Source: Burkholderiales bacterium
Lineage (GTDB): Bacteria; Pseudomonadota; Gammaproteobacteria; Burkholderiales; SG8-41
Direction: 5' to 3'
Length of the DNA stretch: 56,425 bases
Assembly: GCA_044867805.1 (NCBI GenBank)
Contig: JBIOVQ010000281.1
Coordinates: 1-56,425 of the forward strand
The translations under genes and the position numbers were made by a program. The notes beneath the pieces were generated by a model. That model was not told where the DNA came from and did no database searches. It worked only from the letters and a program-made list of their open reading frames with translations. Every line of letters starts with the position of its first letter. Position 1 is the stretch's first letter. This document shows positions 10,762-51,496 of the stretch, piece by piece.

Positions 10762-10830
10762 GTTGGCAGTTGGCAGCCGTCAGTTGGCAGCAACTGCAAA
10801 CTGCCCACTGCAAACTGCAAACTGCAAACT
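10762..10830. repeat. Stutter hairpin: (GTTGGCA)n arm, then (CAAACTG/TGCAAAC)n arm
   Basis: 7-nt periodic arms. The turn is CAGTTG-GCAG-CAACTG at 10781-10796. I hand-paired about 19 of 25 stem positions. It fills the gap between the rhlE stop and the rhodanese start. Confidence 0.85.
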
Positions 10831-10834
10831 TCTC

Positions 10835-12415
10835 ATGAAAGCAGTCAGACCACAGCAACTCAAGGCCATGCTGCAGGATGGTCACGAGCTCGCGCTGCTC
10901 GATGTCCGCGAAGCGGGCCAGTTCGGAAAATCGCACCTGCTGTTCGCCGTTCCCCTGCCCTACAGCCGCCTCGAGCTCGACATCGGGCGTCTCGTGCCGC
11001 GGCCCGGGACACGCATGGTGCTCTGCGACGACGGCGACATCGGTATCGCCGCCCGCGCCGCACACCGCCTCCAGGCAATCGGCTACACCGATGTCGCCCT
11101 CCTCGCCGGCGGCACTCGCGGCTGGGCCGATGCGGGCTACACGCTTTACTCCGGGGTCAATGTTCCCAGCAAGGTCTTCGGCGAGCTCGTCGAACACGCC
11201 TATCACACGCCGCGTGTCACCGCGCACGAGCTCCAGCGGATGAAGGAATCCGGCGAGGACTTCCTGCTTCTCGATGGCCGGCCTGTGAGCGAGCATCACA
11301 AGATGACCATACCCGGGAGCATCTGCTGCCCGAACGCCGAGCTCCCCTACCGCGTTTCGGCCATGGTGAAGAACCCGCGCACCAAGATCGTGGTCAACTG
11401 CGCCGGACGCACGCGTTCCATCGTCGGGGCGCAAACGCTGATCAACTACGGCATCCCGAACCCGGTGCTTGCGCTGGAGAACGGCACGCAGGGCTGGTAC
11501 CTGGCTGACTTCAAGCTCGAGCACGGCAGCACCCGGCGCTACCCGGACAGGACGGAGGCTGCCTCGCTGCCCGCCGTGCAGGCCTCCGCTGCGAAACTCA
11601 TGCAGCGCTTCGCGATCACGACGGTCACTGCGGCGCAGGCAAAGGAATGGCTGCAGGATGCGGGTCGCACGACCTACCTGTGTGACGTGCGCACGCCGGA
11701 GGAGTTCGAAGCGGGATCGATACCGGGCGCCCTGCATGCGCCCGGTGGCCAGCTGATACAGGCGACCGACCAGTGGATCGGCGTGCGCAATGCGCGCATC
11801 GTGCTCATCGACGGGGGAGAGAACATCCGCGCCCCGATGGTCGCGAGCTGGCTCAAGCAGCTCGGCTGCGATGCCTGGGTGCTGAAGGGCGGCGTCCAGG
11901 CCGAACTCCGGAGCGCGCCCGCCGCCAATCTCGACCTGCCCGCGCTCGCGACGATTTCAGCTCCTGAGCTGAAGTCCGCTCTTGCCCGGGGGAACTGCAT
12001 GGTGCTGGATCTTCGCCCCAGTCGGGAGTTCCGCAAGGTTCACATTCCGGGGAGTCGCTGGAGCATACGCTCCCGCGTGCGCAGCGCAGCGGGCGACGCA
12101 GGAAAGATGGTCGTCCTGGTGGCCGATGACTCCGGCCTGGCGCGCGTCGCGGCGATCGACCTCCTCGAAGCGGGAATCGCTCTTCTGAAGATGCTCGACG
12201 GCGGAATCGCAGCCTGGACGGATGCGGCATACCCGGTTGACTCCGCGCCCGACGACCCGCCCGACGCGGAATGCATCGACTATCTGTTCTTCGTCCACGA
12301 CCGGCATGCCGGCAACCGCGAGGCTATGAAGCAATACCTCGCCTGGGAGACGGGGCTCGTCACCCAGCTCGACGAGCAGGAGCGCGCCGCCTTCAAGGTC
12401 GCAGCGCCTCAGTAG
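10835..12415 (+). CDS. Multi-domain rhodanese-like sulfurtransferase (four rhodanese-like repeats)
   Basis: Repeated rhodanese folds. Only the second has a canonical active loop (VNCAGRTRS); the others have D in place of Cys or lack the Arg. The ATG at 10835 (MKAVRPQQL) is preferred to the ORF-track start at 10634. Confidence 0.85.
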   Translation: MKAVRPQQLKAMLQDGHELALLDVREAGQFGKSHLLFAVPLPYSRLELDIGRLVPRPGTRMVLCDDGDIGIAARAAHRLQAIGYTDVALLAGGTRGWADAGYTLYSGVNVPSKVFGELVEHAYHTPRVTAHELQRMKESGEDFLLLDGRPVSEHHKMTIPGSICCPNAELPYRVSAMVKNPRTKIVVNCAGRTRSIVGAQTLINYGIPNPVLALENGTQGWYLADFKLEHGSTRRYPDRTEAASLPAVQASAAKLMQRFAITTVTAAQAKEWLQDAGRTTYLCDVRTPEEFEAGSIPGALHAPGGQLIQATDQWIGVRNARIVLIDGGENIRAPMVASWLKQLGCDAWVLKGGVQAELRSAPAANLDLPALATISAPELKSALARGNCMVLDLRPSREFRKVHIPGSRWSIRSRVRSAAGDAGKMVVLVADDSGLARVAAIDLLEAGIALLKMLDGGIAAWTDAAYPVDSAPDDPPDAECIDYLFFVHDRHAGNREAMKQYLAWETGLVTQLDEQERAAFKVAAPQ

Positions 12416-12421
12416 CGCGCT

Positions 12422-12519
12422 GCGACGGTGACGGGTGATAGGTGATAAGTGATGGGAGCTTTATTCAACGCCGCAAGGCCGGAGCCTTATCACTTATCAC
12501 TCGTCACTTATCACGCAGC
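12422..12519. repeat. Stutter hairpin: (GGTGATA/GTGACGG)x4 arm, then (TTATCAC)x4 arm
   Basis: 7-nt periodic inverted arms with a ~28-nt spacer, between convergent stops at 12415 and 12519. Confidence 0.85.
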
Positions 12520-13496
12520 TAATTGACCTGCAGTTTTAAGTCGCGCACGACCTTGCCCCACTTGGCGTACTCGACCCGGAGGAATGCGTCGAAGGCCTTT
12601 GGATCGGTGGCCACGATGTCGGTTCCGGCCCGCTGGAACGCAGTCCGCACTTCCGGCGTCTGGAGCACCTTCGTCACCGCCTGGTGGATGCGCTTGATGA
12701 CCCCCGAGGGGGTTCCGCGCGGCGCGAGTAAACCCGTCCACAGTGACGCGTCGTAGCCCGGCACGGTTTCGGCTATCGACGGGATGTCCGGCAGCTCCGG
12801 CGAGCGCTTGGCGGTCGTGACCGCGATGATCCGCAGCTGGCCCGCACGGTGATGCTGGATGATGCTCGAGAGCCCGAGGCAGCCGATCTTGACCTGGCCG
12901 CCCAGCAGGTCGGCGCGCACGGGACCGCTCCCCTTGTACGGGATGTGCACCATGTCGATGCCGGCCATGCTGGTGAACAGCGCCTGGAACAGATGCATCG
13001 CGCCTCCCTGGCCCGAGGACGCGTAGTTGTGCATGCCCGGCTCCTTCTTCGCCAGCGCGATCAGGTCCTTCACCGACCTGACGTCGAGCGAAGGATGCAC
13101 CGCCAGGCCGTAGGGCTGGCTCGCGATCTCCATGATTGGCGCGAAGGCATTCAGGGGGTGGAACGGCACCTTCTTGTACAGATTTGGAAAGATGGAGTGA
13201 GGGGAACCGGTGCCAAGCAGCGTGTAGCCATCGGGATTCGCCTGCGCCACCAGGTCCGTTCCGATCAAGCCCCCGGCGCCGGTACGATTATCGATCACCA
13301 CCTGCTGGCCCAGGACTTCCGGCAGCCTTGTCGCGACGATGCGCACCAGCACGTCGGTCGAGCCGCCCGCCCCGAATGGAATGATCATCCGTACCGGCTT
13401 GGTGGGATAGGTTTCTGCCGCCCACCCGCAAGAGATTGCCGCCGAGAACAGCGCACCGGCACACGCAAGAGCCGCGTAATTCGCCTTCTTCATCAT
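12519..13496 (-). CDS. Bug-family (TctC-like) tripartite tricarboxylate transporter substrate-binding protein
   Basis: Signal peptide, YPTKPVRMIIPFGAGGSTD, and the C-terminal EYAKWGKVV motif. Confidence 0.9.
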   Translation of the reverse strand: MMKKANYAALACAGALFSAAISCGWAAETYPTKPVRMIIPFGAGGSTDVLVRIVATRLPEVLGQQVVIDNRTGAGGLIGTDLVAQANPDGYTLLGTGSPHSIFPNLYKKVPFHPLNAFAPIMEIASQPYGLAVHPSLDVRSVKDLIALAKKEPGMHNYASSGQGGAMHLFQALFTSMAGIDMVHIPYKGSGPVRADLLGGQVKIGCLGLSSIIQHHRAGQLRIIAVTTAKRSPELPDIPSIAETVPGYDASLWTGLLAPRGTPSGVIKRIHQAVTKVLQTPEVRTAFQRAGTDIVATDPKAFDAFLRVEYAKWGKVVRDLKLQVN

Positions 13497-13751
13497 TTCC
13501 TCCTCGCTGTGAATGCTCCCCGTTCGGTTGTTAGATTCGTGTCGTCGAAACCACCGGAATCATACCATCGCTCCCGTGAGCCGCAGAGAGCAGGCTCGCT
13601 ACGCGCAGAGCGGTGACATTACGGCGCGCTACCATCGAGACGTCTTGCCGGTTTCGATTTCGCTCGCGTACTGCATGATCCCTCCCCATATCGTCGCGAC
13701 CTTGCTCGCGATCGCTGCGGCAGCCGCCGCAACCGCCGTTGAGGCACGCGG

Positions 13752-13923
13752 TTGAACGAGGCCGTCTCCGACGCCATCACCATGGGCGACGTGCGTAGCC
13801 GGATCGCCGCTCTCGGCGCGCAGCCGGCCGGGGGGCCGGCCCCAGCAACTGGCTACCCTGATCCGCGGCGAAATACCCAAGTGGACGAAAGTCGTCACGG
13901 AGGCGGGCATCCGGCTCGAATGA
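13752..13923 (+). pseudogene. C-terminal relic of a second Bug/TctC-family gene, frameshifted in a G6 run
   Basis: Frame A reads LNEAVSDAITMGDVRSRIAALGAQPAGG. After the GGGGGG run at 13830-13835, the +1 frame reads RPQQLATLIRGEIPKWTKVVTEAGIRLE*. Together these match the C-terminus of the intact neighbour (..VRTAFQRAGTDIVATDPKAFDAFLRVEYAKWGKVVRD..). No N-terminal part is present. Confidence 0.6.
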
Positions 13924-13976
13924 TTGCGGCTGTCGGCCGTCACGCAGACCGGCGCATGGGTTAAGCTGATGGCCTG

Positions 13977-14639
13977 ATGCTGGTCGTGCGCAATCTCTCG
14001 AAGTCCTTCGGCGGCACGCGGCCGCGCGAATTGCTCCGCCGGATCTCGCTCGATGTCGCGACGGGCGAGTATGTCGCCATCGTGGGCGAGTCCGGCGTCG
14101 GCAAGACCACCCTGCTCAATCTGATCGCCGGGCTCGATCAGCCGGATAGCGGCACCGTAGCGCTGGATGGGAAGGAAATGTCGGCGCTGGATGACGCCGG
14201 GCGCACCCGCCTGCGGCGCAGCAGCATCGGCTTCGTGTTCCAGGCCTTCCATCTTCTGCCGCACCTGACCGTGGCGCAGAACGTCGCCCTGCCCCTGTCG
14301 CTGAATGGCGCCGACACCGCGCAAGCCGGCGAGCGTCTGCAGGAAGTTCTGGCGGCGGTCGGCCTGGATGCCGCTGCCGACGTCTATCCGCGCGAGCTTT
14401 CCGGGGGCGAAATGCAGCGGGTAGCCATCGCCCGCGCGCTGGTGCACCGCCCCTTGCTGCTGCTCGCCGACGAGCCCACCGGCAACCTGGACGCAGACGC
14501 GGCGAAACAGGTACTTACCCTGCTCCGCGATCAGGTCAAACTGGAGTCGGCGTCCGGCATCCTGGTCACGCACTCCGCGGTCGCGGCAGCGACCGCGGAC
14601 CGCGTGCTGACGCTCACCGCGGAAGGATTGAAATCCTAG
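13977..14639 (+). CDS. ABC transporter ATP-binding protein (LolD/YbbA/AttE-like)
   Basis: Walker [10 protein letters not shown], signature LSGGEMQR, Walker [13 protein letters not shown]. Confidence 0.9.
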
Positions 14640-14824
14640 ACGCAAAGTCGCAAAGCCGCAAAGGAATACGAATAATGCAATGAAGATCCGGGCGCGAAGG
14701 AAGGGAAGATAGGCAGGATTGACAGGGACTGCCGGATCGTAAGGAATGTGGCTATCCGTGCCTGGCAAACTTGGCGGTTCTAAAATTATCTCTGTCTTTC
14801 TTCGTGCCTTTGCGTCTTTGCGTC
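14639..14824. repeat. Composite CGCAAAG-class element: GACGCAAAG-TCGCAAAG-CCGCAAAG arm, ~130-nt less GC-rich interior, CTTTGCG-TCTTTGCGTC arm
   Basis: Arms at 14639-14664 and 14796-14824. The interior carries ATAGGCAGGATTGACAGG (14709-14726), shared 16/18 with 32837-32854. Confidence 0.85.
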
Positions 14825-14845
14825 CAGATTCTTGACGAGGACTGA

Positions 14846-16273: not shown

Positions 16274-16330
16274 GCGGCGCCGCGCCAGGCCGCGATCAGC
16301 GTCGCCGCCATCGTCACCAGCTTCAGCCTC

Positions 16331-17386: not shown

Positions 17387-17390
17387 CAAC

Positions 17391-17522
17391 GTGAATCGTG
17401 ATTGGTGATTCGTGATTCGCAGCCACAGCTCGAAAAGGCGTCGCTTACTGGCCTGGCTCGCGGCATTGTGGGCAGCGCCTGCCGCGCCGGCTCAAATCAC
17501 AAATCACAAATCACAAATCACG
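17391..17522. repeat. Stutter hairpin of GTGATTC class: GTGAATC-GTGATTG-GTGATTC-GTGATTC ... (AAATCAC)x4
   Basis: Arms at 17391-17419 and 17493-17522 with a 73-nt spacer. It overlaps the 5' end of the next CDS. Confidence 0.85.
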
Positions 17523-19541: not shown

Positions 19542-19550
19542 CCGAAGGTC

Positions 19551-24132: not shown

Positions 24133-24311
24133 AACCGCAGATAAACGCAGATGAACGCAGATCAAAGAGTGAAACCCCTCGACGCAAAGCCGCAAAGGCG
24201 CAAAGAGAGCACTCATTGAATATTGGAAGAAATACTTTGCGGCTTTCTTCTTGTTTTGCGTCAAGTGTTTTGGGCAACCTTATCGGCATTCATCGGCGTT
24301 CATCGGCGGTT
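24133..24311. repeat. Nested composite element: outer 10-nt-unit arms (ACGCAGATRA / TTCATCGGCG) enclosing an inner CGCAAAG-class hairpin
   Basis: Outer arms at 24133-24167 and 24279-24311. Inner arms at 24178-24207 and 24235-24265. The central loop at 24208-24234 is AT-rich. Confidence 0.85.
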
Positions 24312-24604: not shown

Positions 24605-24690
24605 GCGCCGGACGTCAGTCGTCAGCTGTCAGCTGTCAGCCGCCAGCAGGTTTATACTGAAAACTGACAACTGACGTCTGACAGCTGCGC
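24605..24690. repeat. Stutter hairpin of GTCAGCT class: GTCAGTC-GTCAGCT-GTCAGCT-GTCAGCC ... CTGACAA-CTGACGT-CTGACAG
   Basis: 7-nt periodic arms with a ~9-nt loop (AGGTTTATA). It lies between the moaD-like stop and the cydA start. Confidence 0.88.
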
Positions 24691-29755: not shown

Positions 29756-29951
29756 CTTGACGCAAAGCCGCAAAGGCGCAAAGAGGATCGAGGATTCAAA
29801 AATCAAAAAATCTCGGCGCTCTTCCTCTTTCGCGGCAAGGTCCCGAGGCTCTCTTCAAGGCGTCGGCGGGTAGAATCTCGACGTAAAGCGTCAAAAGGTT
29901 CTCCCCTTTTAATCAGGGACTTTCTTTGCGTCTTCGCGCCTTTGCGTCAAG
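29756..29951. repeat. Composite CGCAAAG-class element with near-perfect termini CTTGACGCAAAG...CTTTGCGTCAAG
   Basis: Arms at 29756-29786 and 29920-29951. The ~133-nt interior has its own inverted repeats (ATCGAGGATTC / GAATCTCGAC). It lies between convergent stops. Confidence 0.88.
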
Positions 29952-30216: not shown

Positions 30217-30288
30217 GCCGTCAGCCGACAGACGTCAGCCGCCAGCAGTAAGTTATCGACTGGCGTCTGGCATCCGGCGTCTGGCGGC
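30217..30288. repeat. Stutter hairpin: GCCGTCA-GCCGACA-GACGTCA-GCCGCCA ... CTGGCGT-CTGGCAT-CCGGCGT-CTGGCGG
   Basis: 7-nt periodic arms with a 13-nt AT-rich loop. It lies between the gltS-like stop and the CDGSH start, on the same strand. Confidence 0.82.
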
Positions 30289-32803: not shown

Positions 32804-33073
32804 AGCCGCCAAGACGCCAAGGCGCCTAGAGAACAAATAGACAGGATTAACAGGATTAGATCAAAAGCTTTACCGCAAAGGGAACGATAATAAGATCAAG
32901 AGCCAACCCGAGTCCGCGAAGAACGGCGCCAAGAGCGGCATACAGGAAACGCCCACATATTTTGATCACCGTCCTGGCGAGCGGATGATGCGGCCGGAGT
33001 TCGGATCTCCCTTAGAGCCCGCTTTCTGCCGTAGAAAATGGCCGTCTACGCTGGCGTCCGGCGTCTGGCGTCT
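32804..33073. repeat. Composite element: GCCGCCAA-GACGCCAA-GGCGCC arm, ~220-nt less GC-rich interior, CTGGCGTC-CGGCGTCT-GGCGTCT arm
   Basis: Arms at 32804-32826 and 33050-33073. The interior begins with tandem ACAGGATTA x2 and the core shared with 14709-14726. Confidence 0.8.
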
Positions 33074-36971: not shown

Positions 36972-37048
36972 GCCAGATGCCAGACGCCAGTCAGTGTGCC
37001 GGTAGTTCCATTTTGTTCTTCTTTGCGGCTTTGCGCCTTTGCGTCAAG
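36972..37048. repeat. Chimeric half-elements: GCCAGAT-GCCAGAC-GCCAG (GGCGTCT class) followed by a solo CTTTGCG-GCTTTGCG-CCTTTGCGTCAAG arm
   Basis: The two arms are not complementary to each other. The pair lies just downstream of the thrC stop. Confidence 0.75.
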
Positions 37049-38186: not shown

Positions 38187-38287
38187 CTTCGACGCAAAGT
38201 CGCAAAGGCGCAAAGGATTACCAAATTACGGCAAAGCCAATCACTCAACCCATTTTCTCCCTCTTTGCGGCTTCGCGGCTTTGCGTC
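38187..38287. repeat. CGCAAAG-class hairpin in the hom-thrC intercistronic gap
   Basis: Arms at 38187-38216 (CTTCGACGCAAAGTCGCAAAGGCGCAAAGG) and 38260-38287 (CCTCTTTGCGGCTTCGCGGCTTTGCGTC). The right arm touches the hom stop. Confidence 0.88.
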
Positions 38288-39597
38288 TAATTCAATTCCT
38301 CGAGTCTGATGCGGGTGACCTTGCCCACGACGACGGGTAGCTTCTCGATCTTCGCAATCGCGGTGTCCATGTCCTTTTCGACGGTCATGTGGGTAAGCAT
38401 GACAAGATCGACTTGCTCCTCGCCGCTGCGCGGCTCTTTCTGCACCAGCGCCTCGATCGAGATCCGCTGATCGGCCAGAATGCGCGTGATGTCCGCCAGC
38501 ACGCCGGGCCTGTCCTGCACCCTCAATCGCAGGTAGTTGCGCGTCTCGACCTCCCCCATCGGCAGGATCGGCGTGCTGGAGAGCTGGCCGGGCTGGAACG
38601 CGAGATGGGGGACCCGGTGCTCGGGGTCCGCCGTGAGCATCCGCGCCACGTCCACCAGGTCCGCCACCACCGCGGAGGCGGTGGGCTCGGCTCCGGCCCC
38701 GGCGCCGTAGTACATGGTCTGCCCCACCGCGTCGCCCTTGACCAGTATGGCATTCATCACGCCTTCCACGCTGGCGATCAAGCGCCGCGCCGGGACGAGG
38801 GTGGGATGCACCCGCAGCTCGAAGCCCCTCGCCTTGCGCTTGGTAATGCCCAGCAGCTTGATGCGATAGCCCAGCTCCTCCGCGTACTTGATGTCCTCCT
38901 GCGTGAGCCTGGAAATGCCCTCGGTATGGGCCGCCTTGAATTGCATCGGGATGCCGAAGCCGATCGCCGCCATGATCGTGAGCTTGTGCGCGGCATCCAC
39001 GCCCTCGACATCGAAAGTCGGGTCGGCCTCCGCGTAGCCGCGCCGTTGCGCTTCCTTGAGCACGTCCTGGAAGCTCGAGCCCTTGTCCCGCATCTCGGAG
39101 AGGATGAAGTTGCTGGTGCCGTTGATGATGCCGGCGATCCACTCGATGCGGTTGGCGGTCAGGCCTTCCCGCAGCGACTTGATGATGGGGATGCCGCCGC
39201 CGACCGCGCCCTCGAACGCCACCATCACGTCCTGCTTTTGAGCGGCCGCGAAGATCTCGTTGCCGTGGTTCGCCAGCAGCGCCTTGTTCGCGGTGACGAC
39301 GTGCTTGCCGCCGGCAATCGCCTTCAGCGTGAGGTCCTTCGCAATGGTGGTGCCCCCAATCAGCTCGACCACGATGTCGATGTCGGGATGGTTCACGACC
39401 TCGTTGGCATCGGCCGTCACGGTAGCGCGGCCGCCCGCGATACGCTTCGCACGCTCGATGTCTTTGTCGGCGACCATCTTCATGGCGATCCGGCAACCGG
39501 CGCGCCGCGCGATCTCCTCCTGGTTGCGGGCGAGCACCTCGAAGGTGCCGCCCCCCACGGTGCCGATACCGAGCAAACCCACGTTGATGGGCTTCAC
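38287..39597 (-). CDS. hom: Homoserine dehydrogenase
   Basis: VKPINVGLLGIGTVGGG NAD motif and a C-terminal ACT domain. The GTG at 39597 is preceded by GAGGAGG (39603-39609). The ORF-track start at 39678 lies inside the repeat. Confidence 0.93.
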   Translation of the reverse strand: MKPINVGLLGIGTVGGGTFEVLARNQEEIARRAGCRIAMKMVADKDIERAKRIAGGRATVTADANEVVNHPDIDIVVELIGGTTIAKDLTLKAIAGGKHVVTANKALLANHGNEIFAAAQKQDVMVAFEGAVGGGIPIIKSLREGLTANRIEWIAGIINGTSNFILSEMRDKGSSFQDVLKEAQRRGYAEADPTFDVEGVDAAHKLTIMAAIGFGIPMQFKAAHTEGISRLTQEDIKYAEELGYRIKLLGITKRKARGFELRVHPTLVPARRLIASVEGVMNAILVKGDAVGQTMYYGAGAGAEPTASAVVADLVDVARMLTADPEHRVPHLAFQPGQLSSTPILPMGEVETRNYLRLRVQDRPGVLADITRILADQRISIEALVQKEPRSGEEQVDLVMLTHMTVEKDMDTAIAKIEKLPVVVGKVTRIRLEELN

Positions 39598-39624
39598 GCC
39601 GGCCTCCTCGGCAAGTAACAAGCA

Positions 39625-39688
39625 ACGAGTGACGAGTGACGAGGACGAAGTCCCCACTCTGCACTCTGCACTCTGCACTCTGCACTCA
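39625..39688. repeat. Stutter hairpin: ACGAGTG-ACGAGTG-ACGAGGA ... (CACTCTG)x4 perfect + CACTCA
   Basis: The four exact CACTCTG copies at 39655-39682 run into the alaC-like stop codon. It is intercistronic between alaC and hom. Confidence 0.85.
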
Positions 39689-40870
39689 TAGGACTCCGTC
39701 CTTCTTGAACATGTCCTTGATGCCTCGCAAGGCCTGTCGGGTGCGGGCCTCGTTCTCGATCAGCGCGAAGCGCACGTGCCCGTCCCCGTAATCGCCGAAG
39801 CCGATCCCCGGCGCGACCGCGATCTTTGCGTCCGCGAGCAATTTCTTGGCAAACTCGAGGGAGCCCCCCTTGCGGTACGCCTCCGGGATCGCCGCCCAGA
39901 TGTACATGGTTGCCTTGGGCACGTCCACGTCCCACCCGATCGCCTTCAATCCGCCGCACAGCACGTCGCGCCGGCCCTGGTAGGTCCTGCGCACCGTTTC
40001 GACGCAGTCTTGCGGGCCCTCGAGCGCGATGATCGAGGCCACCTGGATCGGAGTGAACATGCCGTAGTCGTGGTAGCTTTTCATGCGCGCCAGCGCCTTG
40101 ACCAGCTCGCGGTTGCCGACCATGTAGCCGACGCGCCAGCCCGCCATGTTATAGCTCTTCGACATGGTGAAGAACTCGACCGCGATGTCGCGTGCGCCCG
40201 GCACCTGCATGATCGATGGCGCCTGGTAGCCATTGAACACGATATCGGCGTAGGCAAGGTCATGGACCACGTAGATGTGGTGCTCGCGGGCGATCGCCAC
40301 CAGCCGCTCGAAGAACGCGAGGTCCACGCACTGCGTCGTCGGGTTGCTGGGAAAATTCACGATCAGCAGCTTGGGTTTGGGATAGGACGCGCGGATCGAG
40401 CGCTGGAGCTCGTCGAAGAAATCCACCCCCGGGGTCATCGGCACGTGCCGGATGTCCGCGCCTGAAATCACCGGCCCGTAGATATGGATGGGGTAGCTCG
40501 GGTTGGGCACCAGCACGATGTCGCCGGTGTCGAGGGTCGCCAGCGCGAGGTGCGCGATGCCCTCCTTCGAGCCGATGGTGACGATCGCCTCGGAATCGGG
40601 GTCGAGCTCCACGCCGTAGCGGCTCTTGTACCAGTTGCAGATCGCCCGGCGCAGACGCACGATGCCCTTCGATACCGAGTAGCGGTGGGTATCGGGACGC
40701 TGCACGGCCTCGACCAGCTTCTCCACGATGTGACGCGGCGTGGGCTGATCGGGATTGCCCATGCTGAAGTCGATGATGTCCTCGCCGCGCCGGCGTGCGG
40801 CGAGCTTGAGCTCGCCGGTCACGTTAAACACGTACGGCGGCAGGCGTTTGATTCGAGCAAACTCTTCCAT
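39686..40870 (-). CDS. Class I/II PLP-dependent aminotransferase (AlaC/AlaA-like)
   Basis: Motifs [26 protein letters not shown] (PLP lysine) and HVRFAL. Confidence 0.88.
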
Positions 40871-41327: not shown

Positions 41328-41424
41328 GAGTTCCAAGCTACAAGCTGCAAGCTTCAAGCCGCAAATCGGACCGCCACCTCGCGCGCTCGCGACCTTGCAG
41401 CTTGAGGCTTGTAGCTTGTTACTC
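41328..41424. repeat. Stutter hairpin: CAAGCTA-CAAGCTG-CAAGCTT-CAAGCCG ... CTTGCAG-CTTGAGG-CTTGTAG-CTTGTTA
   Basis: A stem of about 32 positions with ~5 mismatches by hand pairing. It lies between convergent stops. Confidence 0.88.
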
Positions 41425-45326: not shown

Positions 45327-45522
45327 CTCCGGGCTTTACGATAATCCCCTCGCCCGGAAAGCGCAAAGACCTTCGTTCTGTGTCAGGGGTGTCGGTATCG
45401 GTCCGCAGACGGAGCCAAAAGTCACACCGGCTGGCGCGGGCCCGACGTCGTGGCGAGGACGGCGCTGTCACCTGTCACGTAGAATGGCGCACTAGGCAAG
45501 AAGAGAAGGGTTCAACCTGAGC

Positions 45523-46443: not shown

Positions 46444-46446
46444 CAG

Positions 46447-46554
46447 CGTGAATCGTGATTCGTGAATCGTGATTCGTAAGTCCGCCCGACGGGTGCAACA
46501 GCAAACGAGTACCACGAATCTGGTCGAATCACGAATCACCAATCGCAAATCACG
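46447..46554. repeat. Stutter hairpin of GTGATTC class in the moxR-DUF58 gap
   Basis: Left arm GTGAATC-GTGATTC-GTGAATC-GTGATTC (46448-46475). Right arm has ACGAATC / CGAATCA / CCAATCG / CAAATCA units (46514-46554). Confidence 0.85.
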
Positions 46555-46563
46555 CTTTTCTTG

Positions 46564-47529
46564 ATGTACGCGGCCCTCAAGAACTCCATCGCGACTCGCC
46601 TGTTCCAGTGGCGCGGCCCCGAGGCAGGGCCCATCGTCCTGGTGCAGCGGCGTGTGTTCATCCTGCCCACGCGCCAGGGAATGGCGTTTGCCCTGGTGCT
46701 GCTGGTCATGCTCATCGGCTCCATCAACTATTCGCTGGGCCTCGGCTTCGTCCTCACCTTCCTGCTCGGGGCGCTCGGCGTCAACGCCATGATCTACACC
46801 TTCCGGAACCTCGCGAACCTGCGGGTGACGGGCGGGCGGGCGCGCCCGGTATTTGCCGGCGACGTCGCGCAGTTCACGGTCCATCTGGAGAACGCCGGCG
46901 AGGCGGACCGCTACGCCATCGGCCTGACCCACGACCGCCAGCATGCGTATTTCGTGGACGTGAAGGCGCGCACTACCGCTTCCGCGATCGCCCGCATACC
47001 CGCCGAGCAGCGCGGCATCTTCAAGCCGGGCCGGCTGAGGCTCTTTACCCGTTTTCCGCTGGGCCTGTATTACGCGTGGGCATACCTCGAGCTCGACATG
47101 CATTGCATCGTGTACCCCCGCCCTGCCCTGCCCGGCTTGCCGCTGCCGCCCGCCATGGCGAGCGCGGGAGCGGGCACCGAGCACGGGCGCGGGCAGGAAG
47201 ATTTTGCCGGCCTGCGGCAGTACCACGTCGGCGACTCTCCCCGTCACATCGCGTGGAAGGCCGCCGCGCGCGACCAGGGCCTCCTCACCAAGCAGTTCGC
47301 CGGACGCGCCGAGACCGAGCTGTGGCTTGACTGGGCGCAGATGCCGCCGCGGATGGGCGCGGAGGAACGGCTGTCTCACCTTGCGCGCTGGGTGCTCGAC
47401 GCGCATGCAGCTGGCCTGTCCTACGGCCTGCGCTTGCCGGCCGAGACGGTGGCAATGGCGGCGGGCGAAGCCCAGCGCGATCGATGCCTCGAAGCCCTCG
47501 CGCTCTACGAGCAAGAGCGTGATTCGTGA
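46564..47529 (+). CDS. DUF58-domain protein (MoxR-associated, vWA-like)
   Basis: GQEDFAGLRQYHVGDSPRHIAWK motif and N-terminal TM helices. It follows moxR. Confidence 0.88.
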   Translation: MYAALKNSIATRLFQWRGPEAGPIVLVQRRVFILPTRQGMAFALVLLVMLIGSINYSLGLGFVLTFLLGALGVNAMIYTFRNLANLRVTGGRARPVFAGDVAQFTVHLENAGEADRYAIGLTHDRQHAYFVDVKARTTASAIARIPAEQRGIFKPGRLRLFTRFPLGLYYAWAYLELDMHCIVYPRPALPGLPLPPAMASAGAGTEHGRGQEDFAGLRQYHVGDSPRHIAWKAAARDQGLLTKQFAGRAETELWLDWAQMPPRMGAEERLSHLARWVLDAHAAGLSYGLRLPAETVAMAAGEAQRDRCLEALALYEQERDS

Positions 47530-47591
47530 TTGGTGATTTGTGATTCGAGATCCCGCGGGAACCTGCTCGATTCACGATTCACGATTCACGG
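47518..47591. repeat. Stutter hairpin of GTGATTC class in the DUF58-tgpA gap, starting inside the last codons of DUF58
   Basis: GTGATTC-GTGATTG-GTGATTT-GTGATTC-GAG, a loop containing the palindrome TCCCGCGGGA, then CTC-GATTCAC x3. Confidence 0.88.
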
Positions 47592-47597
47592 GTTCCA

Positions 47598-49556
47598 ATG
47601 ACTGACGCCAAACAGCCCCTCGCCTGGCAGCACGCGCTATACCTGCTCTTGTCGCTGACGGCTGTGGGAGCGCCGCATGTGCTGCACCTGCCGTGGTGGA
47701 CGGTCGGGTTGGTGGCCGCGCTTCTCGCCTGGCGCGCGTACCTGGGATACGCCCGCAGCACGCTGCCCAATCGCTGGCTGCTGCTGCTGACGGCGCTGGC
47801 GGCCACCGCCGGGGTCTTTCTCAGCTACCGCACCATTTTCGGACGCGAGGCCGGGGTCGCACTGCTGGTGGTCATGCTGGCGCTGAAGACGCTCGAGATG
47901 CGCACGCTGCGCGACGCAATGCTGCTCATCTTCCTCGGCTATTTCCTGGTCATCACCAACCTGCTGTATTCCCAGAGCATCGGCACGGCGCTCTACATGC
48001 TCGCCTGCACGGTATTCATCACCGCGACCATGATCAGCCTCAACTACGCGGACGCCGAGCCGCCGTTCCGCGTGCAGTTGCGCGCCGCCGGGCTGATGCT
48101 GGCGCAGTCGGTGCCGCTGATGCTGGCGCTGTTCCTGCTGTTCCCGCGGGTGTCCGGCCCGCTGTGGGGCATGCCGCGCGACGCGTTCGGGGGCGTGAGC
48201 GGCCTGTCGGACACCATGTCGCCGGGCGGCATTTCGAGCCTCGTGCTGTCGGACGCCGTCGCGTTCAGGGTCAGCTTCGAATCCCCGCTGCCCCGCACGA
48301 GAGACCTCTACTGGCGCGGCCCCCTGATGTGGGATTTCGACGGACGGACGTGGTCGGTGCAGTTCTTTCTCAATACGGCGCCGGGGATCGCGGCCTCCGG
48401 CGAACCGGTGAAGTACGAGGTCACCCTCGAGCCGCACAACCGGCGCTGGATGTTCGCGCTCGACCTCCCCGCCGTCGTGCCGACCGGTGCCGTCGTCAGC
48501 GCCGACTATCACCTCTACGCGGTGCGGCCGGTGAACAACCGCGTGCGCTACGAAATGACCTCGCTGCTCAACGCCAGCTTCGGCGCAGCCGAGAACCAGC
48601 AGGCCCTGAATCGCGCGCTGCACCAGCCCGCGCGCATGAACCCCCGCGCACAGGCGCTTGGGCGCTCGCTGCGGGAAAAGCACGGCGCCAATCACGTGGC
48701 GATCGCGAACGAGATGCTCACCCTGTTTCGCGGACAGGAGTTCCGCTACACGCTCGAGCCGCCGCTGCTGGGCGAGCATCCGGTGGATGAATTCCTGTTC
48801 TCGACGCGGGCCGGGTTCTGCGAGCACTACGCGTCGGCCTTCGCGGCCGTCATGCGCGCGGCAGGGGTTCCCACCCGCATCGTGACCGGCTACCAGGGCG
48901 GCGACTACAGCGCGCTCGGCAGCTATCTGATCGTGCGCCAGGCCGACGCGCACGCCTGGACCGAGATCTGGCTGAAGGACCGCGGGTGGGTGCGGGTCGA
49001 TCCCACTTCAGCCGTGTCCCCCCTGCGGGTCGACACCGGAATCTCGGCCGCGGTGCCGCGGGGCGAGTCGCTGCCGCTGCTGGTGCGTGGAAACGCCGAG
49101 TTCCTGCGGCAGTTGAGGCTCACCTGGGACTACGTGGCGAATGCGTGGAACCAGTGGGTGCTGGGCTACACCCCCGAGCGCCAGCGCTGGCTGCTTTCCA
49201 ACGTCGGAGTGGACAACGCCACCTGGGAAAAGCTGGCCGCGATCCTGTTCTGCCTGGCCGGCGTGATCGTCGCGATGCTCACGGCGCTCGCGCTGCGCCA
49301 GCTCAGGTCGCGCGTGCGCGATCCCGTGAAGATCGTGTATCTCAGGTTCTGCGACAAGCTGCGCCGCAGGGGCCTGCCGCGGGCGGGGGCCGAAGGGCCG
49401 GTCGACTACGCGCGGCGGATAAGGGAACTGCGGCCCGAGCTGACTCCCGCGGTCGACGGGATTACCACGCTCTACGTGGCGCTGCGCTATGGAGCGGAAA
49501 AGAGCGCGGCCGCGCTGCTGGAACTGCAGCAAAGGGTGAGGCAGTTCACGGCTTGA
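47598..49556 (+). CDS. Transglutaminase-like membrane protein (TgpA-type: DUF3488 + transglutaminase core + DUF4129)
   Basis: Six N-terminal TM helices. GFCEHYASAF (catalytic Cys), DAHAWTEIW and VRVDPT form the C-H-D triad context. Confidence 0.88.
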   Translation: MTDAKQPLAWQHALYLLLSLTAVGAPHVLHLPWWTVGLVAALLAWRAYLGYARSTLPNRWLLLLTALAATAGVFLSYRTIFGREAGVALLVVMLALKTLEMRTLRDAMLLIFLGYFLVITNLLYSQSIGTALYMLACTVFITATMISLNYADAEPPFRVQLRAAGLMLAQSVPLMLALFLLFPRVSGPLWGMPRDAFGGVSGLSDTMSPGGISSLVLSDAVAFRVSFESPLPRTRDLYWRGPLMWDFDGRTWSVQFFLNTAPGIAASGEPVKYEVTLEPHNRRWMFALDLPAVVPTGAVVSADYHLYAVRPVNNRVRYEMTSLLNASFGAAENQQALNRALHQPARMNPRAQALGRSLREKHGANHVAIANEMLTLFRGQEFRYTLEPPLLGEHPVDEFLFSTRAGFCEHYASAFAAVMRAAGVPTRIVTGYQGGDYSALGSYLIVRQADAHAWTEIWLKDRGWVRVDPTSAVSPLRVDTGISAAVPRGESLPLLVRGNAEFLRQLRLTWDYVANAWNQWVLGYTPERQRWLLSNVGVDNATWEKLAAILFCLAGVIVAMLTALALRQLRSRVRDPVKIVYLRFCDKLRRRGLPRAGAEGPVDYARRIRELRPELTPAVDGITTLYVALRYGAEKSAAALLELQQRVRQFTA

Positions 49557-49721
49557 TGAAGCGTGACACGATGAACCGTGACACGGTGGAGCGTGACGCG
49601 GTGAAGCGTGACACGATCAAGCGCTCGTAAGTAGTTTACGGAATCCTGTGACGCTGTGTTGCGTCACGCTGTACCGCGTCACGCTCTATCGCGTCACGCA
49701 GTACCGTGTCACGCTTTATCA
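49557..49721. repeat. Largest stutter hairpin: 15-nt unit (TGAAGCGTGACACGA) x4.5, loop, (GCGTCACGCTNTAYC) x4
   Basis: Left arm 49557-49624 (units 1 and 4 identical). Right arm 49662-49721, running into the nlpD stop. It lies between convergent genes. Confidence 0.9.
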
Positions 49722-50633
49722 GACAGGCGGGAGCAGCTTGATGGGATCCGTTGGCTTGCCGAACCGGCGGATCTCGAAGTGCAGCTTGGCCTGGTCGGCA
49801 TCGGCGGTGCCCATTTCGGCGATTCTCTGTCCGCGGGCGACGCTCTGCCCTTCTTTCACCAGCAGCTGGCGGTTATACGCGTAGACGGAAACGAACGTCT
49901 CGTTGTGCTTGATGACGATGAGCTTGCCCAGCCTGCCCAGCGTCCCGGTCGCCGTCCCGCTGAAGATGATGCGCCCCGGCGCGCTGGCCAGCACCGGCTG
50001 CCCCGGCTTCCCGGCAATGCCGATGCCCTTCACCGTGGTTCCGTTGAAGGTGTTCACGACCTTGCCGCTGACCGGCCATGCCCATTGGATGCCGTCCTCG
50101 CCCGCCGCCGCGCGCGGATCGGGTTTCGCTGAGGCATCCGGCTTCGCGCTGGCGAGCTGGTTGTAAGCCTGGTCGGAGTACGGCGCCCGCACTGCCCTGG
50201 GTTGCGTCTTGACGTTGCCACCGGCGGCAGCCGGTCCTTCCCCGAGAGGACGGCCCTCCACTCCCGGAGCGCCCCTGAGGGGCGCGGCAGCCGCCGTGTC
50301 GGGCGGCCTGAGCCGAAGCCGCTGTCCGATGCGGATGACACCGGGGTCGGAGATGCCGTTCCACTGTGCCAGCTCGCGATAATCGAGCCCGTTGTCGAGC
50401 GCGATGCTGTAGAGGGTGTCGCCCTTTCCGATGACATGAAATTCCGGCCGCGTGTCTCCCAGGCGGGGCGCGGTCCTGACGGCAACGGAGGGCTTCTCCG
50501 GCGCGGGGCGGGACCCGGTGCGATCGAACACCGGGGCGCCGGTGCCCGTGCCGCAACCCGCAGCCACCGCGACGGCGAGTATCGCTATGGCCGCGGTGAT
50601 CCGGGATTCGTGATCCACGATCAGATCGCGCAT
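49719..50633 (-). CDS. nlpD: LysM + M23 peptidase lipoprotein (NlpD-like murein DD-endopeptidase family)
   Basis: Lipobox AVAAGCG, LysM (HVIGKGDTLYSIA) and the M23 C-terminal domain. The start is uncertain (ATG 50633 or GTG 50657). Confidence 0.88.
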   Translation of the reverse strand: MRDLIVDHESRITAAIAILAVAVAAGCGTGTGAPVFDRTGSRPAPEKPSVAVRTAPRLGDTRPEFHVIGKGDTLYSIALDNGLDYRELAQWNGISDPGVIRIGQRLRLRPPDTAAAAPLRGAPGVEGRPLGEGPAAAGGNVKTQPRAVRAPYSDQAYNQLASAKPDASAKPDPRAAAGEDGIQWAWPVSGKVVNTFNGTTVKGIGIAGKPGQPVLASAPGRIIFSGTATGTLGRLGKLIVIKHNETFVSVYAYNRQLLVKEGQSVARGQRIAEMGTADADQAKLHFEIRRFGKPTDPIKLLPPV

Positions 50634-50667
50634 GGCTCTTGCCGATTCACGGCTCACGGTTCACGCC
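50595..50667. repeat. Stutter hairpin (GTGATCC-GGGATTC-GTGATCC ... GATTCAC-GGCTCAC-GGTTCAC) enclosing the nlpD start region
   Basis: Arms at 50595-50628 and 50643-50667. The ATG at 50631-50633 sits in the loop. Confidence 0.8.
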
Positions 50668-50727
50668 CTTGTCCGCAAGAAAGGGGCGCTCATCTCCGCT
50701 CGCCGCATGGGAATACCCTGGTCGGGT

Positions 50728-51390
50728 CTACCCGACACCCGGCAACAGGGGAACGAATCTGACCAGGTCCATGCGCCGCTCGATGTAGCCCTTCTCGGTG
50801 CGCTCGATCACGTAAAGATGCTGCTCGCTCCTGCCCGCCAGTGGCAAAACCATTCTACCACCCGGGCCCAGCTGCTCGAGCAGCGCGGCGGGCGCGCGCG
50901 CGGTCGCGGCAGTCATGACGATCGCGTCGAACGGGGCCACTTCCGGCATGCCGGCATGGCCGTCTCCGTGCCGCAGATGGACGTTGGAGACGCCGGCTTC
51001 ACGCAGATTCCTGCGCGCCTTGCGCACCAGCGCGGCGAGCCGCTCGATCGAGTAGACGTGCCTGGCGACCCTGCCGAGCAGCGCGGTCTGGTAACCGCAG
51101 CCGGTTCCGATCTCCAGGACCTTTGCGAGAGCATGACCGTTGCGCGCGAGCTCGGTCATGCGCGCCACCGTGTGCGGGCTCGAGATGGTCTGGCCGAAGC
51201 CGAGGGGCAGCGACATGTCTTCGTAGGCGCGGGTGGCGAGCGCTTCGTCCACGAAAATGTGCCGCGGCAGCGCCCCCATCGCGGCCAGCACGGTCTCGTC
51301 GCGTATGCCCTGCTCGCGCAAGCGCTCGATCATGCGCAGCCGCGTGCGCTGCGAAGTCATCCCGATTCCCGGGTTGCGCCCCGGCGGCAT
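50728..51390 (-). CDS. pcm: Protein-L-isoaspartate O-methyltransferase
   Basis: SAM motif [13 protein letters not shown] and the TISSPHTVA motif. Confidence 0.93.
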
Positions 51391-51433
51391 CAGAATGCGG
51401 CTCCCTGTGAACGCCGGCCGGGTCGCACCCGAT

Positions 51434-51496
51434 AAGGATGAAGGATGAAGGATGAAGGATGACCCAAGTTTCTAGTTTTTCTTTCCGCCCTCATCC
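51434..51496. repeat. (AAGGATG)x4 perfect tandem array with a partial complementary partner CCTCATCC
   Basis: The four exact copies span 51434-51461. The partner lies at 51488-51496, next to the surE stop. It is intercistronic between surE and pcm. Confidence 0.85.

Follow-up and report, generated by a model that had tools for sequence, protein, structure and literature searches.

Between the genes of a 56,425-nt stretch of DNA from a soil Burkholderiales bacterium (the window; contig JBIOVQ010000281.1), 18 loci carry tandem arrays of short units, and 14 of these are true hairpins with arms built from such units. The elements probably represent miniature selfish DNAs and not ordinary terminators. 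We give roughly an even chance to the reading that they lack ORFs and are related, in the manner of MITEs or REPINs, to a cassette bounded by hairpins, with slippage having remodelled them. The genome has at least eight classes of unit, with periods from 7 to 15 nt. The initial annotation assigned a single architecture to all 18 loci, which holds for the 14 hairpins and fails at four partial loci (32804..33073, 36972..37048, 50595..50667, and 51434..51496).

Tandem arrays of period 7, 8, 10, or 15 were detected by TRF at every one of the 18 loci. The window contains 32 period-7/8 arrays. A strict definition of an inverted pair (equal period, at least 2.5 copies, consensus sequences that are reverse complements with no more than 1 mismatch in every 5 nt, and no more than 300 nt between the arrays) yields 10 pairs. 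A mean of 1.6 arrays and 0.01 pairs was found in 100 dinucleotide shuffles, the control that had been proposed at the outset, and the excess over chance is thus borne out. A set of 83 loci from related betaproteobacteria, 1.29 Mb in total, yielded only 1 strict inverted pair, and its density of period-7 arrays, 1.3 per 100 kb, is 27-fold below that of the window (35 per 100 kb). Folding of each locus with RNAfold, likewise proposed earlier, gave z <= -3 for one or both strands at 13 loci, the lowest value being -11 at 49557-49721. That the loci are artefacts of assembly or sequencing has a negligible probability. Two short-read unitig contigs (L085 and L086) do both stop at 51436, at one array, but loci 41328, 49557, 50595, and 51434 recur base for base in independent assemblies from different samples, and like architecture is found in finished genomes and plasmids (L330-L332) and in Xanthomonas (PMC4692102). 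Contig L084 of GCA_044866855.1 is 99.98% identical to the window without indels over 47945-56425, with 1 substitution in 49557..49721 (at 49694), and the 41328 hairpin is spanned by Logan contigs L087 (100%) and L088 (99.4%), being identical in both.

Most of the hairpins are built from heptamers, and none of the 18 loci is assigned to a strand. The hairpin at 10762..10830 (GTTGGCA x4 / CTGCAAA x5.6; strict pair; z -1.9/-3.8) occupies the entire gap between DEAD-helicase and rhodanese genes, co-directional on the + strand, while that at 12422..12519 (GGTGATA / CTTATCA arms; strict pair; MFE -46 kcal/mol, z -6.3) separates the convergent rhodanese (+) and TctC (-) genes. Units of the class I-like form NGTGATT make up 17391..17522 (4 + 4 units; strict pair; z -4.9/-6.2), which comes after an FtsX permease gene, and pair with GATTCAC at 47518..47591 (x5 / x3; strict pair; z -3.0), between a DUF58 gene and tgpA; GTGAATC/GTGATTC units form 46447..46554 (strict pair; z -5.0/-6.5), between moxR and the DUF58 gene. 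GTCAGCY / ACTGACA arms at 24605..24690 (strict pair; z -5.0/-7.5) lie between a ThiS-like gene and cydA, and GCCGTCA/GTCAGCC faces CTGGCGT at 30217..30288 (z -3.7), between CDGSH and glutamate-synthase-like genes, a junction at which relative L002 carries a different unit, GCTGAGT. The class II-like (NNNGAGT) hairpin GAGTGCA x4 / ACGAGTG at 39625..39688, between alaC and hom, folds marginally (z -1.8/-2.8), yet its pairing is visible. CAAGCTN x4 forms the hairpin at 41328..41424 (strict pair; z -6.8/-8.3), separating convergent DUF498 and PAS-GGDEF-EAL genes. The longest unit, a 15-mer, is found at 49557..49721 (GATGAAGCGTGACAC x4.6 / complement x4.7; strict pair; MFE -102 kcal/mol), between the convergent tgpA and nlpD genes.

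A second group shares an 8-mer of the CGCAAAG class, with a conserved 7-nt core and an eighth base that serves as a free spacer position. Its hairpins are found at 14639..14824, between ABC ATPase and permease genes (GACGCAAAGTCGCAAAGCCGCAAAG ... CTTTGCGTCTTTGCGTC; loop 144 nt; z -4.2), at 29756..29951, separating convergent TraB-like and CDGSH genes (flanks CTTGAC...GTCAAG; loop 137 nt; z -6.6), and at 38187..38287, filling the hom/thrC gap (strict pair; z -5.6/-7.3). A further copy, at about 24180-24262, is nested in the loop of an outer hairpin at 24133..24311 with 10-mer arms (CGCAGATNAA x3 / ATCGGCGTTC x3; strict pair; z -3.8/-7.2). Two of the partial loci also contain 8-mers of this kind. 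At 32804..33073, between the convergent nadC and cupin genes, a CGCCAAG 8-mer array on the left and a CTGGCGT 7-mer array on the right lie ~220 nt apart and fold weakly (z -0.5/-2.7); CGCCAAG is a one-base variant of CGCAAAG, and CTTGGCG often partners CGCAAAG arms in other genomes. At 36972..37048 a GCCAGAY array stands next to a CGCAAAG-class arm (CTTTGCGGCTTTGCGCCTTTGCGTCAAG), two non-cognate halves whose arrays (GCCAGAY vs. CTTTGCG) are not complementary and form no hairpin (z > 0), and relative L001 has no element there. The remaining two partial loci are 50595..50667, with weak GTGATYC-like arrays (z -0.8/-1.5) at the pcm/nlpD junction that extend over the nlpD start annotated in L084, and 51434..51496, at the surE/pcm junction, where an AAGGATG x4 array on the left side faces only one complementary unit (CCCTCATCC; z -1.4).

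The elements fill about a third of gene-to-gene gaps, and their distribution depends on gap type: of the gaps that are 60 nt or longer and include the 3' end of a gene, 18 of 27 are occupied, whereas none of the 6 divergent gaps is (p = 0.0045). As the initial annotation described, they abut or overlap stop codons, they occur inside operons (alaC-hom-thrC, surE-pcm-nlpD, and moxR-DUF58-tgpA) as well as between convergent genes, and the window contains no transposase; RAYT genes are missing from it as well. The second unit of the array at 47518, for example, includes the DUF58 stop codon, TGA at 47527-47529. Such placement would also be expected if short stems had grown in situ, lengthened by slippage of 7-8-nt units with template switching keeping the arms complementary, and been selected as protectors of RNA 3' ends, partial terminators, or sites of operon processing, an explanation that we consider rather unlikely. 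It would account for the tandem structure, for the unequal unit numbers in the two arms, and for the stability of the stems, and at alaC/hom, as at least one example, the first unit has bases in common with the sequence around it (ATGAG). Slippage has been proposed for heptamer arrays, a known type of VNTR (PMC4692102), and the P6b stem of Nostoc gains and loses whole units on both sides (PMC4476775). No T-tails were found at the elements, however, and folding of both strands gave no G:U preference on the transcribed strand (5 loci favor sense, 5 antisense). Neighboring units have identical cores and differ in the spacer base, which is unexpected after recent slippage. Slippage may plausibly alter copy number, which leaves standing that part of an earlier hypothesis of slippage-grown terminators or stabilizers, but in situ growth is not sufficient because identical units and flanks occur in unrelated phyla and their arms peak at exactly three units.

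Comparison with close relatives, also suggested in the initial annotation, revealed both presence/absence and unit turnover at orthologous junctions; the elements are gained, lost, and replaced quickly. In L001, which is 92% identical, elements are missing or have another unit at the orthologous junction. Where the window has the alaC/hom hairpin, the two genes overlap by ATGA in L001, L002, and L003, and the PAS/DUF498 junction, which holds a hairpin in the window, has no gap in L001. The hom/thrC junction carries a CAAGCNC/CAAATNN hairpin in L001 and L002, CGCAGAG units in L030, and no element in L003. Related elements are found at this junction in about ten betaproteobacterial genomes, and among the 74 such genomes with a measurable hom/thrC gap the most structured gaps are all hairpins of this type, with units CGCAGAG, CACAGAG, CGCTGAG, and CGCGGAAAG. 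Roughly half of the 74 have a gap of <=25 nt; that about half of the relatives can do without an intergenic gap here is a further point against in situ growth. No target-site duplication is visible, and comparison with the empty sites in L001 gave no clean insertion boundaries, both of which count against the MITE-like reading. Rapid turnover, the lineage-specific density, and the lack of strand bias would also fit neutral by-products of unusual replication or repair, in which error-prone fork restart or double-strand-break repair makes inverted duplications that then stutter, with neither mobility nor function. This origin appears improbable, as it leaves unexplained both the unit classes and flanks common across phyla and the association with a nuclease gene described below, and would need added purifying selection to account for the absence from divergent gaps.

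Outside this genome, CGCAAAG units together with their flank recur across phyla. Searches for CGCAAAG x3 matched >120 metagenome contigs, whose GC ranges between 0.36 and 0.76. Among IMG/VR viral contigs 81 have it, vs. 1 for a permuted control. Exactly 3 units are present in 92 of 101 CGCAAAG arms, and these arms have a conserved flank, TCTCA, and an upstream consensus (AAWWTTYTCA) that lies outside the search pattern. The junction reads TCTCA|CGCAAAG, and CTYGA|CGCAAAG in the window's genome. Copies within one genome have arm and flank variant in common and unrelated loops, the latter unlike classical MITEs and a point against the preferred reading. About half of the CGCAAAG arms in other genomes are solo arms, co-oriented within a contig, and in phage-like contigs these stand 6-20 nt upstream of SD+ATG, a placement that would also fit a cis-regulatory role.

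Another explanation makes the elements regulatory rather than selfish: each arm would be a periodic array of binding sites for a DNA or RNA factor from the host or a phage, candidates being a multimeric protein or the ribosome via SD-like purine units. The conserved core with its free eighth base, which fits the binding-array hypothesis in the initial annotation, agrees with this, as do arms fixed at three units and the solo arms ahead of start sites. One strand of many units, as in AAGGATG, GGTGAT, and AAAGG, is rich in purines or resembles an SD sequence. The number of unrelated unit classes in a single genome argues against a single sequence-specific regulator. Arm orientation relative to genes also varies by contig, being sense in most phage-like contigs and antisense in L114, L120, and L244, with no overall orientation bias, and the elements are dispensable because they are missing at orthologous junctions in close relatives. 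Taken together, we regard binding arrays as unlikely.

The preferred reading, that of ORF-less relatives of a cassette, draws on the genes found between CGCAAAG-class arms elsewhere. In other genomes these arms bracket a gene for a GxxExxY protein (PF13366 / TIGR04256), a small, uncharacterised PD-(D/E)XK nuclease of 125 aa, in six or more phyla (Planctomycetota, Cyanobacteria, Acidobacteriota, Gemmatimonadota, Alphaproteobacteria, and Bacteroidota). GxxExxY ORFs lie between arms in L093, L125, L135, and L157 (Planctomycetota), and arms were present in every context of a close homologue that was fetched by protein alone: L308, L318 (Acidobacteriota, with arms pointing outward around the ORF), L319 (Calothrix), and L322/L324. 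Further cases are L330 (Gemmatirosa), L331 (Sphingomonas, in the fabD/fabG gap), and L332 (Bacteroidota, with CACAGAG units). The predicted structure has a PD-(D/E)XK nuclease fold (pLDDT 92.7), and its best Foldseek matches in the PDB are lambda-exonuclease-like and Cas4 nucleases. Physical association of the arms with the nuclease gene is thus observed, and it is shown only for the 8-mer class; neither the window nor the 1.29 Mb of betaproteobacterial loci contains a PF13366/GxxExxY gene or remnant, and no partner gene was found for the heptamer or 15-mer classes (10 of the 18 loci). The association by itself could also mean that the arms are RNA-processing or insulating stems for the nuclease gene.

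In the model that we propose, an element has two mutually inverted arms, each with 2-5 units of 7-10 nt in tandem. Elements would insert into gaps holding the 3' end of a gene, and slippage during replication, together with intrastrand template switching, would reshape the arms later. The 8-mer class CRCRRAG is taken to comprise the five CGCAAAG loci and the related CGCCAAG and GCCAGAY arrays, and its full-length relatives in other genomes carry the GxxExxY gene in the loop. The arms may be recognition sites of this nuclease: it, or a comparable enzyme with its gene in another part of the genome, would recognize the units and the conserved junction and propagate ORF-less copies in trans, and the heptamer classes might work likewise. 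Once transcribed, the long imperfect stems would probably be cut by RNase III, by analogy with the 23S rRNA IVS, so that insertion inside operons could be tolerated. Among the three hypotheses put forward initially, a REP/MITE-like family mobilised in trans is the best supported, through turnover, the cross-phylum unit and flank, and a candidate partner gene, with mobilisation by the GxxExxY nuclease itself being what we infer from that association.

Among the closest known elements are Xanthomonas-type arrays, with which the tandem heptamer repeats of cyanobacteria (STRR) are grouped. The GGGAATC arrays of Xanthomonas (Rehm et al., 2015; PMC4692102) are intergenic tandem heptamers, usually of about 4 units, found in convergent pairs; in 70-75 instances per genome two arrays on opposite strands make up an inverted repeat, and the arrays have no known function. 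Like the elements described here, they are rarer between divergent genes and vary in length and sequence between close species, but they have essentially one G-rich unit, interpreted as G-quadruplex-forming, whereas most classes in the window are not G4-capable and one is linked to a gene family. In the P6b stem of the Nostoc tRNA-Leu(UAA) group I intron, 7-nt motifs on both sides undergo whole-unit indels and repeated shifts of unit class at one site (PMC4476775), and the motifs TDNGATT and NNTGAGT resemble NGTGATT and GAGTGCA in the window and GCTGAGT in L002; that stem, however, lies inside one structured cyanobacterial intron, while the window's elements are dispersed over many betaproteobacterial intergenic gaps. 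The E. coli boxC (TMECO) motif is an intergenic element in which a 9-mer occurs once inverted and twice in tandem (CCCTCNCCC ... GGGNGAGGG x2), without a nearby mobility gene, with raised local variability and unknown function (Holder et al., 2015; PMC4666352), but its consensus is fixed at one sequence of about 37 nt, and the motif was interpreted as triplex-forming. REP, BIME, and REPIN elements and their RAYT transposases (PMC3116915, PMC2817692) offer a parallel in being extragenic, dense, and hairpin-forming, directly after stop codons, inside operons and between convergent genes, and present as singlets and inverted doublets; their movement in trans by a once-per-genome gene is a candidate parallel to the preferred reading. 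Each REP, though, is a short palindrome with a GTAG-type head, unlike the non-palindromic tandem array of an arm. MITEs resemble the elements in being small, non-coding, and dispersed between genes, with terminal inverted repeats, possible nesting, and a longer ORF-bearing form; the elements differ in their unrelated interiors, in the absence of a target-site duplication, and in a partner gene encoding a 125-aa nuclease instead of a DDE or Y1 transposase. ORF-less forms of the 23S rRNA IVS have been described for other bacteria (Salmonella). The 23S IVS of Coxiella burnetii, a selfish, hairpin-bounded element with an S23p ORF that is excised by RNase III, has terminal inverted repeats with a stem of about 28 bp and a small ORF in the loop, and a GACAGAT heptamer is present in it as three tandem copies, a number that differs from strain to strain (PMC4990558). 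A claim that no known elements have periodic arms is too strong, since the Xanthomonas arrays, Nostoc P6b, and the Coxiella IVS all have them. IVS nonetheless reside in rRNA helices 25/45 and encode a four-helix-bundle protein, whereas the elements in the window lie between protein-coding genes and the ORF of their full-length relatives encodes a PD-(D/E)XK nuclease.

Judged by its homoserine dehydrogenase, whose best named matches are entered as "MAG: Burkholderiales bacterium" (96% identity), the window derives from an uncultured member of the Burkholderiales. It has a G+C content of 65% and carries core genes recognized by Pfam (a DEAD helicase, a rhodanese, a lolCDE-like ABC system, clpB and cydAB) together with the core operons alaC-hom-thrC, moxR-DUF58-tgpA and surE-pcm-nlpD. 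The initial annotation had placed short tandem-unit arrays at 18 intergenic loci, and TRF detects arrays with a period of 7, 8, 10 or 15 at every one of them. In total the window contains 32 tandem arrays, compared with 1.6 in 100 dinucleotide-preserving shuffles, and 10 inverted array pairs under a strict test, compared with 0.01 in dinucleotide shuffles (n = 100), so that the shuffled control confirms the excess. An empirical control was provided by the hom neighborhood of 83 other betaproteobacterial genomes (1.29 Mb), which contains a single strict inverted pair. Period-7 arrays occur at 35 per 100 kb in the window vs. 1.3 per 100 kb in this control, and three successive NNNGATT units are found five times in the window, and not at all in the shuffles or in the 1.29 Mb of relatives. 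Folding of each locus yields long imperfect hairpins, typically with one mismatch per unit, at 13 loci with z ≤ -3 relative to shuffles, and a marginal structure at locus 39625. A single inverted architecture, earlier ascribed to all 18 loci, is thus upheld for these but not for four partial loci: the arms at 36972 are non-complementary, 51434 is tandem on one side only, and the structure at 50595 and 32804 is weak. The pattern as a whole is genuine and strongly non-random.

An assembly artefact can be rejected, as independent assemblies reproduce four of the loci. A contig of a separate NCBI assembly (L084, from GCA_044866855.1) agrees with the window over 8.5 kb, a stretch in which three of the loci lie, and differs there by two substitutions and no indels, and two Logan contigs from other runs span the hairpin at 41328 with identities of 100 and 99.4%. 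Two short-read Logan contigs, L085 and L086, break off at window position 51436, precisely where the AAGGATG array has its first base pairs. Arrays of this type cause breaks in unitig assemblies, and MAGs may contain too few of them.

Elements either overlap stop codons or begin only a few bases away from them, as first described, and in practice make up the entire gap. In a census of gaps of at least 60 nt between Pfam-supported genes, elements are present in 13 of 19 co-directional gaps, five of eight convergent gaps and none of six divergent (promoter) gaps (p = 0.0045 across gap types). The reported placement both between convergent genes and within operons therefore stands, the latter exemplified by the hairpin between alaC and hom. 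Ordinary G+C-rich hairpins are present in other gaps of the window. Identity as rho-independent terminators was rejected: the stem-loops have no direct T tract, no T runs were found in the 3′ flanks of the elements, and none of the nine loci in the 36-56 kb interval were among the terminator-like matches of a terminator scan. Searches of the window with Rfam at the gathering score and for tRNA or tmRNA genes returned no matches, and representative hairpins of the CGCAAAG class, compared with Rfam by E-value, gave only sub-threshold matches to generic long hairpins (miRNA precursors). Among co-directional loci five fold better in the sense orientation, five in the antisense orientation and two equally well; folding energies are thus unbiased toward the transcribed strand, and there is no G:U signature of RNA-level selection. 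By analogy with the Coxiella 23S intervening sequence, RNase III would be expected to cut transcribed stems (PMC4990558). These observations bear on the proposal that the hairpins grew in situ by replication slippage and were kept as terminators or RNA stabilizers. Slippage and template switching are the most likely explanation for unequal unit numbers and for drift between classes, but the missing T tails and the lack of strand bias speak against the retained function, and hairpins formed in situ and retained as RNA stabilizers are considered rather unlikely.

Orthologous junctions in three close relatives, L001, L002 and L003 (approximately 92, 87, and 83% identical to the window in DNA sequence), display both gain or loss of elements and replacement of one unit class by another. 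The alaC and hom genes overlap by ATGA in all three relatives; in the window (39590-39690) a 64-nt hairpin instead lies between them, and after it come a new Shine-Dalgarno sequence (GAGGAGG) and a GTG start, which give Hom an N-terminus different from those of L001 and L002. At the convergent PAS/DUF498 junction L001 leaves no gap, and the window contains a hairpin of roughly 120 nt. The units between hom and thrC are CGCAAAG in the window and CAAGCNC/CAAATNN in L001 and L002, and L003 lacks them; at the glutamate-synthase/CDGSH junction GCCGTCA units in the window correspond to GCTGAGT units in L002. Across 74 betaproteobacterial genomes in which it could be measured, the hom/thrC gap is 25 nt or shorter in roughly half, and every one of the most structured gaps is such a hairpin, with the related units CGCAGAG, CACAGAG, CGCTGAG, CGCGGAAAG and GTTCGGG. 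In one relative (L049) the hom/thrC gap holds a tandem duplication of a 27-mer, each copy with a small internal hairpin (GCATCCGTGAAGGATGC). Because elements are absent, present or of another unit class at orthologous junctions, they are optional, recurrent insertions and not conserved regulatory structures. Neither target-site duplications nor clean insertion breakpoints were found in comparison with the empty sites of L001. The hairpins might also be neutral by-products of repair, a reading that is judged quite improbable.

The units are also found well beyond this genome. Eight arms at five window loci fit C[GA]C[N][GA]AG repeated about three times, with an outer junction that reads CT[TCA]GA directly before CGCAAAG in the window vs. 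TCTCA directly before CGCAAAG elsewhere. Matches to the pattern CGCAAAGNCGCAAAGNCGCAAAG occur in more than 120 contigs among the metagenome matches listed, with G+C contents ranging from 0.36 to 0.76, and in 81 IMG/VR contigs, compared with one for a permuted control; three successive GTGATTC units occur in 15 IMG/VR contigs. Exactly three units are present in 92 of 101 arms, the eighth base of the unit is free (G 97, A 86, C 21, T 11), and the ten bases upstream of the arm, which lie outside the search pattern, have the consensus AAWWTTYTCA. One of these contigs derives from a Dolichospermum-like cyanobacterium (GlgA 94% identical). Approximately 37% of arms have an inverted partner downstream, with loops of 4-250 nt, about 12% have one upstream, and about half are solo. 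Arm-bearing contigs are also rich in other heptamer arrays, and a frequent partner variant, CTTGGCG, connects CGCAAAG with the CGCCAAG and GCCAGAY arrays of the window. The arm is common to the copies of a given genome, as is a junction particular to that genome (CTYGA in the window, TCC in contig L148), but the loops are unrelated among the five window copies and likewise among those of L148. A marine contig of 76% G+C (L128) has at its end (6-499) a 12-mer, CGCTGCCGCCTC, repeated about 41 times; a CGCAAAG arm together with about 60 nt is also present on it twice in direct orientation, at a spacing of 245 nt.

When 1296 ORFs located near CGCAAAG arms were clustered all against all, the groups obtained were limited to phage structural genes, ABC ATPases and the PF13366 family, with no transposase among them. 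The small PF13366 (TIGR04256, "GxxExxY") protein is encoded inside the hairpin loop in L093, L125, L135 and L157 (Planctomycetota). Close homologs fetched by protein sequence alone all have arms of the same kind, with only the left arm in L331. Armed genes include L308, L322/L324, L318 from Pyrinomonadaceae, L319 from Calothrix (TCTCACGCAAAGGCGCAAAGGCGCAAAG ... CTTTGCGTCTTTGCGTCTTTGCGTGAG), a Gemmatirosa plasmid copy with CGCAGAGG units in which an ORF-less hairpin adjoins the gene, and a Bacteroidota plasmid copy (32% G+C) with CACAGAG units. In L331, on the Sphingomonas parapaucimobilis plasmid NZ_CP155749.1 (482837-483265), the gene lies between fabD and fabG with CGCGAAG units upstream and no right arm visible before fabG; this position in a conserved fatty-acid operon is a niche like that of the intra-operon hairpins of the window. 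The same GxxExxY protein is found in the type I restriction-modification loci L322-L329, between hsdS and downstream genes, with arms on both sides plus extra arms facing outward. As evidence of mobility these shared modules are uninformative, since the common 830 nt run into the flanking genes. ORF-bearing copies occur in at least six other phyla, and a search of viral contigs found only two distant homologs, both without arms. The predicted structure is confident (pLDDT 92.7); in the PDB it comes closest to PD-(D/E)XK nucleases resembling lambda exonuclease and Cas4, with modest TM scores of about 0.5, and a PDB sequence search gave no match. The function of the family is listed as unknown (Steczkiewicz et al., PMC3424549). 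Neither the window nor the 1.29 Mb of betaproteobacterial relatives contains a GxxExxY gene or a remnant of one, and no such ORF is present in L001-L088; the long loops of the window likewise contain no remnants of a nuclease ORF. Pfam analysis of all window genes found no transposase, RAYT or integrase in the 56 kb, in accord with the initial annotation. The only nuclease-like gene is an HNH endonuclease (Pfam HNH_5/HNH; 8498-9265, minus strand), which has no array adjacent to it. For the heptamer classes, 37 small array-flanked ORFs yielded no recurrent Pfam family.

Several lines of evidence argue for dispersed, family-structured elements and not for purely local slippage: presence or absence and class replacement at orthologous sites, nesting (24133-24311), genome-specific junction variants, an arm plus flank that is identical across phyla, and the existence of an ORF-bearing form. 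That much of the suggested REP/MITE-like family survives, but the REP/REPIN head and the shared interior of a MITE are absent, and no target-site duplication was found. The preferred reading, held at about even confidence, is that the window loci are miniature relatives of a hairpin-bounded cassette; the GxxExxY nuclease is the inferred mobilizing enzyme, and the heptamer classes may have an equivalent partner. Tentatively, and with distinctly less confidence, the hairpins may be the miniature form of a cross-phylum, previously unrecognized class of mobile element whose autonomous version encodes a GxxExxY nuclease of about 125 amino acids in its loop.

The main observation that such a selfish-element reading leaves unexplained concerns solo arms. 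No overall bias in their orientation relative to genes was found, and in phage-like contigs solo CGCAAAG arms are co-oriented within each contig and often lie 6-20 nt upstream of a Shine-Dalgarno sequence and ATG. An alternative, that the arms are binding arrays for a factor, is regarded as unlikely. Two phage-like IMG/VR contigs, L256 and L264, have a tandem array of 7-8-mers in almost all intergenic gaps (for example AGGAGTT/CTCCTAA and AATAACG/GTTATTG).

In the literature searched, three aspects appear to be new: the density of the arrays and the number of classes that coexist in a betaproteobacterium, the conservation across phyla of one arm and its junction, and the association of the CGCAAAG-class arm with GxxExxY genes. 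The window presents an extreme density of arrays within core operons of an uncultured soil betaproteobacterium, and with the tie between one unit class and a widespread nuclease gene, a problem that had long been purely descriptive becomes one that can be tested, namely whether GxxExxY spreads or maintains such hairpins. Were the mobile-element interpretation true, it would assign a function to a very large orphan family (at least 8000 homologs at E < 1e-20), explain the long-noted excess of heptamer and octamer arrays in cyanobacteria, xanthomonads and others, and link the arrays to 23S rRNA intervening sequences. Because arrays of this kind interrupt short-read assemblies, alter where genes start and stop and separate operon genes that would otherwise overlap, they have practical consequences for MAG quality, gene calling and operon prediction.

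Bacterial tandem heptamer arrays have been on record since about 1990 (STRR; Mrazek 2007; Xanthomonas 2015), with neither an origin nor a function that is generally accepted. Terminators, REP elements and CRISPR arrays were said at the outset to have no internally periodic arms, and the elements indeed failed all three comparisons. A REP/REPIN unit, defined by an imperfect palindrome of 20-40 nt that has a conserved GT[AG]G head, was rejected, as the arms consist of non-palindromic tandem 7-15-mers with no GTAG head. A REP-like perfect palindrome is present in two copies in the convergent RidA/ScpB gap (3288-3400; ATGAGGGGATAC(T/C)CCCCTCA), and is a kind of repeat distinct from the tandem-unit hairpins. 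CRISPR arrays have 24-40-nt repeats with unique spacers, whereas these units are 7-15 nt long and contiguous, with the second array inverted. In the comparison with MITEs, inverted arms are present, no flanking direct repeats were seen, boundaries are unclean relative to the empty sites of L001, and the loops are unrelated in the window and in L148, with no nuclease-ORF remnant in the window, so that a shared interior derived from an autonomous element is not seen. Periodic arms do have precedents, however. Xanthomonas genomes contain 70-75 convergent pairs of GGGAATC arrays whose function is not known (PMC4692102), and in E. coli, boxC/TMECO contains 9-mers both in tandem and inverted (PMC4666352). 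In Coxiella, the 23S intervening sequence is a selfish element enclosed by a hairpin; it contains a small ORF as well as three tandem heptamers, which vary in number, and RNase III cuts it at the first of these repeats (PMC4990558). TDNGATT or NNTGAGT heptamers make up the P6b stem of the Nostoc trnL intron, with whole-unit gain and loss on both sides and repeated class shifts (PMC4476775); the NGTGATT and GAGTGCA units of the window and the GCTGAGT unit of L002 resemble these classes. The present elements fit the Xanthomonas and Nostoc P6b type in that intergenic units of about 7 nt are paired with a nearby reverse-complement array (the 10 strict pairs) and the unit class varies between relatives at hom/thrC and glutamate-synthase/CDGSH. 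The feature is a variant of a kind that is known but so far without explanation, and it now comes with a concrete lead, open to testing, on how it arose.
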